A stretch of DNA of 64,000 nt from Candidatus Heimdallarchaeota archaeon (GCA_019057815.1 JAHLWR010000019.1:1-64000); one strand, 5' to 3'. Numbered from the stretch's first letter, positions 17,650 through 51,642 are shown. The notes: a model not told the origin generated them from the letters alone. A program made the numbers and translations.

Positions 17650-18522
17650 TTAGTTTCTTTTAGAGGTTGTTATTATATCTAAATAATATCGTGAAAAAAG
17701 TACTTTTAGTCCTTTAGGTAAATAGGGATCAAATGGTTTTTTTGTGGATAATAGTTCACCATTCCATTTGAAAGTGTTAGGTTTGTAAAAAAAACTTTGT
17801 TTAGTCCATTCGACATATCCATTTCTGTAAACAAAACCTTGTTTATACGGATTATAAGGACAAAGATCATTATCAGCAAGAGCAATATGCTCTAAAGCTG
17901 GACATTTAGCTAAAGGGTATAAATCTATAGTTTTTAGTTTGTTACGTTGGATGTCAATTTCGGATAAACTTGAGCATCCTTCCAGAGGTTTTAAGTCTAT
18001 GGCTCGAAGTTTATTGTTATCAAGTCTGACATACCTGAAAGAGGTACTATCAGCAATAGAAGGTAAGGTAATTTTAGTTAGTTGGTTTTCTTCAAAAAAA
18101 ATTCCCAGTAAGTTTGGGCTGTTGCTTAAAGGAGTACAATCTACACAAGTCAGTTGATTCCAATTGAGAGAGATAATTTCTAGTGTAGGGTGATTTTCAA
18201 AAGGGCTTAAATTTATGTTTGTTAATTTATTTCTTGAAAGATCGATTTTTTTTAGTTTTGGGCATTTAGCTAAAGGAGCTAGACTTATACTTGTAATTTT
18301 ATTACCTGAGAGGTCAATCTCTTCCAAATTAGGACAGTTGGCTAAAGGTCGAAGATTGATACTTTTCAAGTGATTATAAGAGAGATTCAAAGTCATTAAT
18401 TTTTTACTCTCCTTAAAACCACTAAAATCGACTCTATCCAGTTGTTTGTCATTATAATCTACATGGTAAGGATTATATCCATACTCAAATCTTTCAACTC
18501 TTTTACCTTTTATTTTTGACAA
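17650..18522 (-). CDS. Leucine-rich repeat protein, cytoplasmic
   Basis: About 8 LxxIxLxxNxLxxIxLxPL repeats; no signal peptide or TM. Confidence 0.9.
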   Translation of the reverse strand: MSKIKGKRVERFEYGYNPYHVDYNDKQLDRVDFSGFKESKKLMTLNLSYNHLKSINLRPLANCPNLEEIDLSGNKITSISLAPLAKCPKLKKIDLSRNKLTNINLSPFENHPTLEIISLNWNQLTCVDCTPLSNSPNLLGIFFEENQLTKITLPSIADSTSFRYVRLDNNKLRAIDLKPLEGCSSLSEIDIQRNKLKTIDLYPLAKCPALEHIALADNDLCPYNPYKQGFVYRNGYVEWTKQSFFYKPNTFKWNGELLSTKKPFDPYLPKGLKVLFSRYYLDIITTSKRN

Positions 18523-18928
18523 TTTTAAATCATCCCTTTTATTTTTAATATAATATTAGTATTTTAAGATAAAAACCTATCTAAAAGTCCATCCAAGGAT
18601 TTTGTATTTTTGAATCTATAAATAATATCAATGAATCTATAGAATTTTTTTTAAGATAGTTTTGGATGTTATTATAATTTTCTAACTATTCTAGTCGGAA
18701 ATATCTTCTTATTGGTTTATTGTTTATCAAAATTATTTTAAAAGCGATATTGATTACTTAAGATTTTGATAGTATTAACATAAGAGATTCTCTTTCATAA
18801 TGTGTTCAAATAATTCAAAATATTGCCAGAAAGATGAGCCAATTATTAAACTATAATCAAAAAAGTACTAAGAAAAAAGAAAGAAAAGGTATAGATTAAG
18901 ATTAAAGATACTCATAGAGTGTTGTATG

Positions 18929-21900
18929 TCAATAAGTTTTTTTGCCAAACATTCCTCCAGCACCCCAGAAATCTACATATTTCATGATACAATGAGCCCA
19001 GTTAGTAGTATCATCATCATAATCATAATCATCTATTTTATAAGGTCCTTTATCCTGTGCATCTTCATACTTGTGTGCTTGTTCATAAGGTTTATCGAAA
19101 TTTTGTGCAGCTATGTCAAATTGTCTGAAAAGTTCAGGGGGGCGTCCATCAAAACATAAAGCTTCAGGAACAAGATAACGTAAATTTTCTACTCTATTAA
19201 AAATTTTCAAACTACTAATTGTTGGGAGAGTGTTCAAGTTTATTTCTACCTTAAAAGTTCCTGCTGTTTCTGTTTCTTTAGGTTTAATTTCTATATATCG
19301 TAAGTATCTGATGCTCCTATCCTGCTTATATTCTAATTTTTTATCTTTAATAAATGAACAATAATCGTCTAATTTTTCTACCATACCGATAAGTGCAATA
19401 GAATCGATAATCTCTCTGTCAGATAAACCTTTCAAAGATATAGCAGGCTTGTTATTATGCGGTTTTTCATGGTCGATATTTATATACATTAACTCTAATG
19501 CTTTTCTAGCAGCGTTTAAAGATTTTCCCCTTACACCATCCAAATCATTAATAAGATTTATTAAAGAGCGGTCTGTATTTTTATATTCTTCAAGATTGGT
19601 TGTAGGCCACCTTATTTCCGAATTATCGACTATCTTTCCACCTAATTTAGTAATAAGAGATTTTAAAGTATCTACATTACACTCAAATTTGTTTAGATTT
19701 ATTATAAAAGCTCTCTTTCCTCGGTCTCCTTTTTCTACGAAGAAAATTTTAATACCCGCACCACTTTCTATTATTGTCACCATCTTGTTTTTTAGTAAAG
19801 GTTTGAGATAGGCATTATTGTTAAAATGGTCGAGAACGCGTTTATATAGTATATCTCTAGCGGTTTTCCCATCTTTGGGTGTAATGTCCTTTTTTATGTT
19901 ATTAACAAAATCAACATTGTTTTTTTTGCTTATCGAATCTCTGAATTTTTGATAAAAGGAGCTGTACATTAAGTATTTAGTATAAGTTTTTGACGCATGT
20001 TCGTGTATAAGATTGACTCTATTAGCTCTGAACCTTGACGCATAAGGTCGATATTTTTGTAACATATCTTTTAAAGAAACACTAGGGTCTTTAATATCTT
20101 TATGTATATAGCGTGTATAAATATCGGTTATCAAAGAGCTTTGGAAGTAATCTATACCGTCAGCAGCGTTTGTACGATAACGCCAAGGATCAGTCTCTTT
20201 ACCTAACAGACCTTCTTTTTTAAGTCTTAAATATGCACCATCGCCACCCATAACAACCTTCCTAGCATTAGTATTTTCTTTGAAGGCATCAGTTAAGAAA
20301 TCCATATGTTTATCATAAAGACTAATAGCATCGTCAAGGTCTAATATAGATGAATCCATAACATTGCAGTGTTTGTAACCAAGATAATAAGGATTGAAAA
20401 TTGTTTCCTCCACTCCTATTTCGGTATCAATGTCAAATTTGAGTGTGGTTTTAGTATAACAGTCGATTTTAGGGGCATTATTAAGATCCTTATAGTACTC
20501 TATTGTATCCGATAGTCTTGCAATCACAGCATCAGATTTACATCTAGGATCAATACCCATGTTTTTTATGAGGAGATTGTAAATAGATTCTATCGTTTTG
20601 CTCTTAGTACCAACATCAGTTTCGCTACTTGTTATATCTTTTTTCAGTTCTTCCATCTTTTTTATAGCTAAACTAATATCCACCCATTCATAAGAGACAG
20701 AAATTTTAGTTATTCCATCCACTGTTTTAGTATCTGTTTTCAAGTAAGGAACATTGTTGGTTGTTAAAAGGGAATAAAGAAAAACTCTCTGATATCTATA
20801 GGATAAGTCATTAGGGTGTTTATCCGTTTTGTAATCACAACCCATAATCCCGCGTTTGAAGAAAAGTTTAATCATACCATCTATTTCATCTCCCTTCATA
20901 TCTCTAAGCGTCAAATAAGCCCCTTTTATAGAGTCTATTTTAACGTGATCGTAACTGAGAGGTGAGATAAGAATAGTTTTAGAAGGAGAAGGATCAACAC
21001 CTTCAGGAGCAGGGAAGTTCCTACCATCCAGATAAACCATTTCGAATAAATGAGGTTTAGTGGGGTCATTTACTGTCTCTGAGGTATATTTTATTATAGA
21101 TGTTGATAAACCGTCAGAGTCTGTTTCAATGTCTATGCCTGTACCCAAGCAGTTTTTACCTGTGTTAATCCCCTCTACCTCATCCTTATTTATGAAAACC
21201 TCTAACAAAGGTCTGGTGTATAACTTGTAATCATCATGAATTCTTTTAATATCCTCAAAGTCGACAATATAGTTACTTCTTACACCATCTTTATTGACCA
21301 CAAAACAAATAGATCTAATAGGTTTATTACCAATCTTAGGTTGAGGTACATTTACCATAAAAGCAGCTTCTATATATGTATTTTCCCCCTCAAGTTCTCC
21401 TTTAAACAGTGAGTTTTTATATGTTAGAAATGTCTTGAGTGTGTCAGTGTTAACTGAAACATGATAAACTTCATCTATATCGATTAAAGTAGTACCATCT
21501 CCATCTTTGTAACCCATATTGTGAAGTTGTCCTCTTCCTGATGCATCGATAACTTCTGCTGAAAAAACATCTTTAAGGAATACGAGGTTAACAGTTAATC
21601 CAGAGATAAGCATAATCTCGAGTTGTAGCTTTAAAGCTAGCCTTTTCGCTGTTTCGAAGTCAGTTTTTAGGCCATTACTTTTCTCGTCTATAGTTCTAGT
21701 AAAAGTATTTAACAAACGCATAAGATTAAGTTCATTAAATTCTCGTTTATAACCAGTTCCTTTTTCATATCGGATGAACTGTTCAATTTGGTCTTTAGTC
21801 ATAATATCTATACTTAGAAGTTTACCCTCACTATCTACAAAATAATTAGGGATGAATTTCCTTTTTATAAGCGTAGCGAGGGTTGACATATCCCGACCAA

Positions 21901-51093: not shown

Positions 51094-51169
51094 CATGAAA
51101 AAATCACTGATTTATTTTCATCAGATCTTTTTTCATGTACCCATATTGCTTTTATTTAACGTATATAAA
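51094..51169 (-). promoter_or_regulatory. Promoter of the MinD-giant operon with an inverted repeat at the expected start site
   Basis: TTTATATA at 51169-51162; IR CATGAAAAAA..CTGAT/ATCAG..TTTTTTCATG at 51094-51137; AGGAG SD before 51053. Confidence 0.5.
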
Positions 51170-51315
51170 AATCTTATCCGTCGACCGTACTGCTTTAAGT
51201 ATTAATAAGCTGTTTAAACTTATTCTTCATTATATTAAATAACCTATGTTGTTAATGATTTCAACCTTCTTAAAGTCGAAAAAAATATATACTATATCTC
51301 CCTAAAAAATTAATT

Positions 51316-51642
51316 ATGTCAAGGTATTTAATGGGTTTGGAGCAAAAGTCAGCTTTACAAGTATTAGAAACATTGCTAGAATTGGGAGGAAAGACGAATG
51401 TCTCAACATTAATTAATTCCGTTATTGGTGGTCAGAAATCAGTCTATTCAGCTATTAACGTTTTAGAGGATTTAGAACTGATTAAAAGCGAGCAGAAGAT
51501 AATACGCGGAAGCAGGTATATATATTTAACTTCAATTGGTGAACAAATAGCATACAAAATAATCGAAATAACGACAATATTAGAATCTCAGAAATTTCAA
51601 AAAAGAGAAAAAAAAACTAAAATTTACAGTTATGATTGGTAA
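51316..51642 (+). CDS. Winged-HTH transcriptional regulator, divergent from the operon
   Basis: ALQVLETL..NVSTLIN..SVYSAINVLEDLELI..RYIYLTSIGEQIA. Confidence 0.8.
   Translation: MSRYLMGLEQKSALQVLETLLELGGKTNVSTLINSVIGGQKSVYSAINVLEDLELIKSEQKIIRGSRYIYLTSIGEQIAYKIIEITTILESQKFQKREKKTKIYSYDW

Follow-up and report, generated by a model that had tools for sequence, protein, structure and literature searches.

A twin-giant operon of a Heimdallarchaeota genome, related to the published aloposons, encodes a second giant protein with a variable, sequon-poor tail

Which task could a tandem pair of giant genes perform in a Heimdall-group archaeon? Such pairs, named Otus and Ephialtes, are tandem genes for proteins of 3,000–6,000 amino acids (aa) in the aloposons (Wu et al. 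2022, PMC8813620). The family was published as a transposon in Ca. Heimdallarchaeum endolithica and Ca. Heimdallarchaeum aukensis, and its host group was described as the closest to eukaryotes (PMC8813620). Few archaeal proteins are as large as Otus and Ephialtes, for which the literature searched gives no function. A twin-giant operon of Candidatus Heimdallarchaeota archaeon (GCA_019057815.1) raises the same question. The window, the whole stretch of DNA analyzed, comprises 64,000 nucleotides (nt), bases 1–64000 of contig C7 (JAHLWR010000019.1; 69.6 kb in total). The genome (G000) has 3.74 Mb in 48 contigs and a GC content of 33%. Two single-contig genomes of the same family, G007 (Ca. H. endolithica; 3,326,783 bp) and G004 (most likely Ca. 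H. aukensis; 3,081,793 bp), and the same-genus genome G001 were used for comparison. Our preferred reading, held with middling confidence, is that the operon encodes an aloposon-type twin-giant cell-surface system, in which the tail of the second giant is a polymorphic working end for cell contact.

Within 51053–17650, six open reading frames (ORFs) on the minus strand precede a gene for a leucine-rich repeat (LRR) protein. They encode a MinD/ParA ATPase, a 183-aa protein, an S8 protease, and proteins of 1551, 2566 and 5235 aa. The 1551- and 2566-aa ORFs are the two pieces of the first giant (giant 1), and the 5235-aa ORF is the second (giant 2).

50157–51053, minus strand: MinD/ParA-type P-loop ATPase, 298 aa, operon gene 1 (PF13614, E 2.8e-25)
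49601–50152, minus strand: 183-aa aromatic-rich protein; no family, signal peptide or transmembrane (TM) segment
46890–49604, minus strand: membrane-anchored S8 subtilase, 904 aa (PF00082, E 1.8e-33)
42221–46876, minus strand: giant 1 N-terminal piece, 1551 aa; Sec signal, no anchor
42221–42321, minus strand: giant 1 frame break, where the two frames overlap (ORF map)
34621–42321, minus strand: giant 1 C-terminal piece, 2566 aa; C-terminal TM anchor and basic tail
18929–34636, minus strand: giant 2, whole ORF, 5235 aa; N-terminal signal
24440–34636, minus strand: giant 2 signal peptide and body, residues 1–3399 (hydropathy, homology)
23144–24439, minus strand: giant 2 conserved junction module, residues 3400–3831, its best-conserved part
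18932–23143, minus strand: giant 2 variable tail, residues 3832–5235 (1,404 aa), unalignable to the G007 and G004 tails
18932–20464, minus strand: last 511 tail residues, duplicated on contig C24

The genes and their order on the minus strand are those of the original prediction, a reading made earlier from the DNA alone; its giant 1 is not a single ORF, and its immunoglobulin (Ig) repeats could not be recovered. The tight coupling and Shine–Dalgarno motifs that it reported were also found. MinD and the 183-aa gene are separated by a 4-nt gap, the 183-aa gene and the S8 gene overlap by 4 nt, and a 13-nt gap lies between the S8 gene and giant 1. The stop of the 2566-aa ORF and the giant 2 ATG share one base (TAATG), if giant 2 starts at ATG 34621. 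All gaps and overlaps are ≤16 nt. AGGAG, GGTGA or GGAGG occurs 6–10 nt 5' of five starts, those of MinD, the 183-aa gene, S8, giant 1 and giant 2.

Both giants and the S8 protease proved homologous to those of Ca. Heimdallarchaeum loci, in agreement with the aloposon link proposed earlier. An all-against-all comparison separated three types of giant pair: type A (C7, the G007 loci at 2.21 and 2.36 Mb, and G004), type B (contigs C16 and C39 of G000, and the G007 locus at 2.41 Mb) and type C (contig C38 of G000). Giant 2 begins with a signal (hydropathy 2.44 at residues 16–40), followed by an acidic, aromatic-rich body. Residues 6–3831 aligned with three Ca. Heimdallarchaeum second giants, of 5326, 5541 and 5557 aa (21–29% identity, E 1e-75 to 1e-81); the 5326-aa protein is K9W46_09965 of G007. 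These alignments ended at residues 3804–3831. The closest giant 2 relative found was P0009, a partial 2719-aa protein from a Heimdallarchaeaceae metagenome-assembled genome (MAG). Its identity to giant 2 was 38–54% in the body (mostly 42–54%), 54–60% at residues 3400–3800 and 21–33% from residue 3800 on. The same step was observed between G004 and G007 (88–99% to 48–74%) and between C16 and G007 (41–57% to 26–34%), likewise between C16 and C39. The conserved body and the variable region meet at residues ~3800–3831, just past an invariant motif at 3686–3724. The C-terminus of giant 2, suspected earlier to vary between loci, is variable and sharply bounded.

The junction module was compared in 11 giants representing all three types. 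Ten positions of the motif are invariant in them (E3686, A3696, D3700, D3703, F3711, R3713, I3720, P3721, D3723 and I3724), as are G3494 and G3498, which lie in a short hydrophobic stretch. The domain-wise structure prediction suggested earlier succeeded in part. AlphaFold2 modeled the junction from 11 rows with a confidence score (pLDDT) of 52, reaching 60–90 in the core. Foldseek found no PDB match for this model at E ≤0.001. A wide search with VIA gave a best Z of 7.3, for a 73-residue helical hairpin, which is background level. There was no convincing PDB match for the junction, and the model of the last 536 residues (5-row alignment, pLDDT 41.6) was unusable for fold search.

The tail differs between relatives far more than the body does. 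Three other type-A giants have tails of 1359–1435 aa that BLAST could not align to the C7 tail, and hhalign detected no similarity between the C7-type tail and the Aloposon3/2 tail (G004/G007). The Lys/Arg content of the tail is ~2 times that of the body, and its composition is cytoplasm-like. Residues 4036–5235, the last 1,200, matched four entries in a library of 1.84 billion representative proteins, namely an orphan ORF on C24 and three metagenome fragments. The last 511 residues contain the motif GGDGxY...YRTNAxDxxD...LxTD, which is conserved with the C24 orphan and two of the metagenome fragments; no C-terminal motif was common to the tails of eight second giants. A 2501-aa signal-bearing protein encoded at C16:23290–30792 (locus L074) matches C7 tail residues 4036–4744 with its residues 1279–1966 (23.5% identity, E 5e-13), indicating that tail modules occur also in other large surface proteins.

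The age of the tail alleles was examined in the published Aloposon3/Aloposon2 pair (G004 versus G007). The synonymous divergence (dS) of giant 2 was 0.00 in the first 800 codons and 0.03–0.27 in the rest of the body. It rose to 0.46 in the window spanning the junction and to 0.97–1.21 in the final three tail windows of 400 codons each. The ratio of nonsynonymous to synonymous divergence (dN/dS) in the tail was 0.22–0.37. These values suggest that the tail does not just evolve faster: it appears to have a much deeper genealogy, under purifying selection. Because dS forms a mosaic along the gene and dN/dS is low, old tail alleles seem to have been moved by recombination onto a conserved body.

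On which side of the membrane is the tail? We counted sequons (N-x-S/T) relative to expectation, with controls from the same genome. The observed/expected ratio was 0.98 in 698 proteins without a hydrophobic segment, used as proxies for cytoplasmic proteins, and 1.31 in signal-bearing proteins. The C7 tail contains 1 sequon versus 10.9 expected (ratio 0.09), and 0 of 5000 shuffles had as few. The giant 2 body (residues 41–3400) contains 20, versus 36.8 in shuffles. Summed over eight second giants, the tails hold 11 sequons versus 88 expected, with individual ratios of 0–0.33. Most simply read, the tail is exported and so meets oligosaccharyltransferase, and must stay free of sugar, because sequons need not be avoided in a cytoplasmic domain. 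Hydropathy agrees with this reading. Past the signal, no 19-residue window of giant 2 exceeds 1.62, and the numbers of strong hydrophobic segments in the sister second giants are mostly even (0, 0, 2, 2 and 4).

These data bear directly on another model, an outside-in giant receptor whose junction helices span the membrane and whose Lys-rich tail lies in the cytoplasm with the LRR protein and MinD as partners. Such a receptor would suit the cytoplasm-like composition of the tail, the cytoplasmic nature of the LRR protein, MinD and the 183-aa protein, and the strong hydrophobic segments found at the junction of sister giants. However, the sequon ratio is 0.09, where ~0.98 would be expected of a cytoplasmic domain. 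The mostly even segment counts of the sisters also speak against a tail on the inner side, and in the C7 protein itself post-signal hydropathy stays at 1.62 or below. We consider the receptor model very improbable.

Giant 1 was predicted earlier as a single anchored protein of ~4080 aa with Ig repeats. Here it is two ORFs in different frames, 1551 and 2566 aa long (4117 aa in total), that overlap by 101 nt. The 1551-aa piece matched residues 42–1073 of the 4225-aa first giant of G007 (E 4e-59), and residues 1247–2566 of the 2566-aa piece matched residues 3124–4225 of the same protein (E 4e-24). As both match one 4225-aa homologue, the two pieces represent one first giant of ~4200 aa. Its TM segment lies at residues 2518–2547 of the 2566-aa piece and is followed by a basic tail. 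An anchored giant 1 beside an unanchored, exported giant 2, the topology predicted earlier, fits the hydropathy of both proteins. The Ig repeats were not recovered: in giant 1, Pfam gave no match up to E 5, BLAST showed no internal repeat, and a recurrent D-x-x-[AP]-P motif was the sole repeat-like feature. Giant 2 likewise lacked Pfam matches and internal repeats, and neither giant matched NCBIfam or PDB sequences.

The frame break in giant 1 raises a further model, in which the locus is decaying or selfish cargo of a mobile element, the C7 copy has no current function and giant 1 is a pseudogene. No long homopolymer run was found at the break. Programmed +1 frameshifting there is unlikely, as a slipping tRNA could not plausibly re-pair within the context GCA TGA C. 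The closest relative, locus L077 (GCA_054383135.1, JBQSBH010000031.1), has a one-base frame shift in giant 2 at 10001–10029, corresponding to C7 residue ~1822; what looks like a break in its giant 1, at 334–353, is merely a stretch of N. Giant genes of different MAGs thus repeatedly carry single frame breaks. Decay would also explain why a sister locus on C24 (described below) lacks ~32.7 kb and why G001 keeps a mere 153-aa tail-end remnant, and it would suit a family that is present in multiple copies and was described as a transposon (PMC8813620). On the other hand, ~27 kb of ORF has stayed open at 33% GC with a single break that is perhaps an assembly error, the ribosome-binding motifs and gene couplings are intact, and members of the family are under purifying selection. 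Decay of the C7 copy is quite improbable in our view, somewhat less so than the receptor model.

G000 contains four full twin-giant loci, on C7, C38, C39 and C16, and a fifth, on C24, is a remnant. Positions 49682–57066 of C7 are 90.6% identical in DNA to C38:178201–185600. The shared segment covers part of the 183-aa gene, MinD and three genes upstream of the operon:

51316–51642, plus strand: winged-helix regulator, 108 aa, divergent from the operon; weak E2F_TDP match, sub-threshold Lrs14/Sta1
52289–56389, plus strand: CarboxypepD_reg protein (687 aa) and NosD beta-helix protein (629 aa), found by Pfam and duplicated with the operon head

C7 49703–51022 is 86.7% identical in DNA to the head of the C39 locus. 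The giants at C7, C38 and C39 are almost unrelated although these heads are 85–91% identical in DNA, indicating that heads and giants are combined as modules.

The tail end has a second copy in the genome, together with the gene that follows it in C7:

17650–18522, minus strand: cytoplasmic LRR protein, 290 aa (PF13855, E 1.2e-31)

C7 17670–20458, which covers the LRR gene and the last 511 codons of giant 2, matches C24:56046–58745 (76%). The orphan ORF at C24:57216–58751 (494–511 aa) is 65% identical to the last 511 residues of giant 2, and the gene after it is an LRR gene 68% identical to that of C7. Both ORFs are intact (dS 0.44–0.46; dN/dS 0.56 for the tail end and 0.40 for the LRR gene). 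C7 53180–54354 and 55269–56547 match C24:58790–59973 and 60982–62260, directly adjacent to the tail-end match. Because these flanking matches adjoin, ~32.7 kb appears to have been lost at C24 between giant 2 residue ~4725 and the 687-aa gene. C24:56026–62260 (loci L002 and L075) is a remnant, in which the tail-end ORF and LRR gene directly adjoin a 687-aa-like gene, of which the 3' part is left, and a NosD gene. A displaced toxin/immunity cassette was considered for the C24 orphan and rejected, as its flanks identify it as a deletion derivative of a whole sister locus.

The original prediction treated the locus as a contact-dependent toxin delivery system, with a toxin at the C-terminus of giant 2, release by the S8 protease and the LRR protein as cognate immunity protein. 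The architecture of giant 2 is indeed like that of a polymorphic toxin, with a signal, a long body, a conserved pre-tail junction and a variable tail. A tail that avoids glycosylation and resembles cytoplasmic proteins in composition fits as well. So do the pairing of the last 511 residues with an LRR gene twice in the genome, both copies open (dN/dS 0.56 and 0.40), and the absence of a signal peptide from the LRR protein, as would be expected of an immunity protein. Yet no toxin or other known domain was found in the tail in searches of Pfam, NCBIfam, PDB sequences, the 1.84-billion-protein library and the ESM Atlas. The variable part is ~1,400 aa long and not 100–300 aa, far above typical bacterial toxin tips, and no array of orphan tip/immunity cassettes was found. 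The immunity role proposed for the LRR protein rests on one segmental duplicate. Since C24 is such a duplicate with an internal deletion, adjacency alone explains the pairing there. Remote relatives of the C-terminal domain in two other genomes, G024 and G014 (29–30% identity), are followed by unrelated genes of 236–239 aa and 330 aa, and the 153-aa remnant in G001 by a HAD hydrolase gene. LRR genes are common in the lineage. The start of the C7 LRR gene lies 406 nt downstream of giant 2, whose stop is followed within ~60 nt by oligo-T runs; given this spacer, the LRR gene is probably its own transcription unit. The link between LRR gene and tail appears to be real but weak, and toxin delivery in this form is unlikely. 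Of the earlier interpretation as a whole, the aloposon link, the topology and the variable C-terminus are supported, and the toxin and the LRR immunity are not.

The giants could also form a non-antagonistic adhesin or envelope fibre that tethers the cell to partner cells or minerals, the tail being a tip diversified by pressure from viruses or partners. LapA/LapG consists of a giant adhesin and the dedicated protease that frees it, and mycosin is the membrane-anchored subtilase of type VII secretion. By analogy, a membrane protease encoded beside giant surface proteins recalls release of the LapA/LapG kind. An anchored giant 1 and an exported giant 2 suit a fibre, secreted NosD and CarboxypepD_reg proteins are co-duplicated with the operon head, and balancing selection on a receptor would be in keeping with tail alleles that are old and under purifying selection. 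The tail itself argues against an ordinary adhesin tip: it has ~2 times the Lys/Arg of the body and is nearly free of sequons, whereas signal-bearing proteins have a ratio of 1.31. No adhesin domain was detected either. We hold this model to be doubtful, about as much as toxin delivery.

We return to the preferred reading, a twin-giant surface system with a polymorphic contact end. Giant 1 would be the cell-anchored stalk, and giant 2 would be exported whole and kept on the surface. Its tail would be the working end, acting in allele-specific recognition or as an effector passed to another cell, and would have to remain unglycosylated. The junction module could serve as a conserved hinge, or as an element for processing or membrane entry. 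The S8 protease might mature or free the giants, and MinD might position or assemble the complex. Recombination would shuttle old tail alleles between conserved bodies.

Several points weigh against this reading. The giant 1 break may make the C7 copy inactive, unless it is an assembly error. The tail lacks any recognizable toxin or other domain, as noted above, and sequence and fold searches detected no known domain in the junction either. Tail lengths are similar throughout the family (1020–1582 aa) and the tail of P0009 is still alignable, so the tail may instead be one fast-diverging conserved structural module. Sequon avoidance is an indirect sign of exposure to oligosaccharyltransferase. 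The Aloposon2/3 second giant may differ in topology, as it has an odd number (one) of strong internal hydrophobic segments and the weakest sequon depletion. Expression, export, cleavage and contact with other cells are, for this system, predictions from sequence.

The giant family was already published. What is added here is the link to the type-A giants of Ca. Heimdallarchaeum, the C24 remnant and the dS mosaic in the published pair. The C7, sister and published loci share a common design, consisting of an anchored giant 1, an exported giant 2, an invariant junction and an old, recombining, sequon-poor tail. The tail properties provide a testable lead to the role of the giants. A tail that is a delivered effector or a recognition allele would bear on the interaction of Asgard cells with their partners.

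The upstream genes were analyzed by profile, motif and topology, and the MinD/ParA ATPase, the 183-aa protein and the anchored subtilase, all claimed earlier, were each confirmed. MinD/ParA has a deviant Walker A motif, KGGPGKT, at residue 21 and scored 89.7 bits against PF13614 (cut-off 27); it reached no NCBIfam equivalog cut-off. Its identity is 91% to the C38 copy, 85% to the C39 copy and merely 24% to the aloposon MinDs of G007, and a MinD on contig C8, whose operon is another one and contains no giants, reaches 60%. The C8 paralogue heads an operon (C8:18893–21822) with two ~330-aa proteins that carry, as judged by eye, zinc-ribbon-like Cys pairs. Counterparts of the C8-type MinD, 60% and 46% identical, occur in G001, G004 and G007, and none adjoins giants. 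The 46%-identical MinD of G004/G007 was considered as an aloposon MinD and rejected, as no giants are nearby. The C8 type is probably the cellular lineage that gave rise to the operon MinD.

The 183-aa protein had no Pfam or NCBIfam match. It is 70–76% identical to copies at C38, at C39 and in G001, and with this query, among 41 relatives searched, it was found in its own genus only. It was not a conserved Cys-rich zinc protein, since only one Cys is invariant. The S8 protease scored 116.5 bits against PF00082 (cut-off 21.8) and has the triad D144/H186/S474 with N392. It carries a signal peptide, a Thr-rich stalk and a C-terminal TM segment followed by RIRKKK, and its catalytic domain is accordingly predicted to face outward. 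In Ca. H. endolithica, the 4475/5326-aa giants have a 705-aa S8 protease upstream, to which the C7 protease is 32% identical. The best NCBIfam match of the C7 protease, the type VII secretion mycosin, was sub-threshold. The winged-helix regulator is 97% identical to a copy beside the C38 sister locus. A divergent regulator upstream and an LRR gene downstream had both been described earlier, and both were found.

Is the locus an island, as was also proposed? G001 is collinear with window positions 3460–16871, save for a missing NosD gene (13185–15008). Past 16871, contig C40 of G001 continues as C24:16139–17436 of G000. A repeat lies at this breakpoint:

16866–17280, no strand: short multi-copy repeat at the synteny breakpoint, with copies on other contigs

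Its counterpart at C24 15848–16108 is inverted. The repeat is 160–400 bp long, with 78–87% identical copies on C46, C8, C43, C36 and C44; that on C8 adjoins a gene pair that appears, from its sequence, to be IS200/605-like (C8:9954–11631). The region beyond 16871 would be a rearrangement or insertion relative to G001, with its far end off the contig. No integrase, transposase or target duplication was identified at the C7 locus. The synteny break gives partial support to an island, and neither a tRNA gene nor an integrase was found to go with it. By the definition of Wu et al. 2022 (PMC8813620), an aloposon is integrated at a tRNA gene that lies downstream of its giants. No tRNA was detected by ARAGORN and Rfam in the window or by ARAGORN on the whole of C7. 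ARAGORN found just 25 tRNAs genome-wide, so that intron-bearing ones may have escaped it. The sister locus on C39 has a tRNA-His gene ~1.8 kb past giant 2.

Beyond the window, a 621-bp stretch (C7:64634–65254, locus L099) is 94% identical to C16:178281–178898, beside the C16 twin-giant locus. A 440-aa ORF (C7:68013–69335) is 27% identical to a 484-aa DUF4365 (nuclease-like) gene upstream of the Aloposon2/3 heads (G007, G004). Because of these two features, the element may extend past position 64000. Other observations concern the flanks. The NosD/right-handed beta-helix family is strongly expanded, with hundreds of DNA matches genome-wide. NosD-type genes of the window (13185–15008 and 54500–62798) include full copies of 607, 629, 774 and 435 aa and fragment-like ones of 274, 243 and 180 aa. 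An Arf-family GTPase gene lies on the minus strand at 10028–10588; together with the relatives found, it assigns the genome to the Heimdall group of Asgard archaea. The ~350 bp directly upstream of it (9671–10027) are 89–92% identical to sites on C1, C43 and C27 and represent a repeated element. The genes at 15682–16764 (360 aa) and 6860–7996 (378 aa) are paralogous (23% identity, E 1e-26), and the 360-aa protein had no Pfam match.

Which known systems does the locus resemble? Like LapA/LapG and mycosin, it has a gene for a membrane-anchored protease beside those for giant exported proteins, an analogy in arrangement. Unlike them, it has no RTX or type I secretion parts and no ESX genes, and the mycosin match is below threshold.

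Bacterial polymorphic toxins (CdiA/CdiI, Rhs/YD and MafB; Zhang et al. 2012, cited in PMC6393860) share with giant 2 a signal, a long body, a conserved boundary and a variable C-terminus. Recombining alleles are also similar in outline, and in one duplicate a small downstream gene trails the tip. There is no sequence or fold relation; giant 2 has no FHA, YD, VENN, PT-HINT or known toxin domain, its variable region is ~1,400 aa long, and an outer-membrane partner and cassette arrays are absent. It is conceivable, if rather unlikely, that the Heimdall group has its own contact-dependent polymorphic effector system, unrelated to the bacterial ones. An anchored stalk would present the second giant, the unglycosylated ~1,400-aa tail would be freed at the junction motif and enter a neighbour cell, tail alleles would be old and balanced, and LRR-type partner genes would protect the producer. 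Aloposons would in that case be islands of conflict or kin recognition and not plain transposons.

The closest likeness is to the aloposons, with differences at the head of the operon. Aloposons have four consecutive upstream genes including a MinD/ParA ATPase (Wu et al. 2022, PMC8813620). C7 has three (MinD/ParA, 183-aa and S8), of which S8 is common with the 4475/5326-aa locus. Its MinD belongs to a separate lineage (24% identity, versus 60% to the C8 MinD). The 183-aa gene and divergent winged-helix gene replace a 378–397-aa gene and a PD-(D/E)XK gene. By tblastn, the Ca. Heimdallarchaeum head genes for the 378–397-aa protein (overlapping MinD), the 305-aa PD-(D/E)XK protein and a 141-aa protein have no homologue in G000. 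Further differences are the unrelated tail sequence, the frame break that splits giant 1 and the contig without a detected tRNA. Because of the different MinD lineage, the missing upstream genes and the absence of a detected tRNA, we would file the C7 locus as an aloposon-like variant and not as a strict member. With the aloposons it shares tandem giants of 4–5.5 thousand codons in the same order, both homologous; an upstream S8 protease, as at the 4475/5326-aa locus of G007; a MinD/ParA ATPase at the head; multiple copies within one genome; and nearby NosD-like and DUF4365-like genes, a NosD-like gene being present in the Aloposon2/3 heads of G007 and G004.

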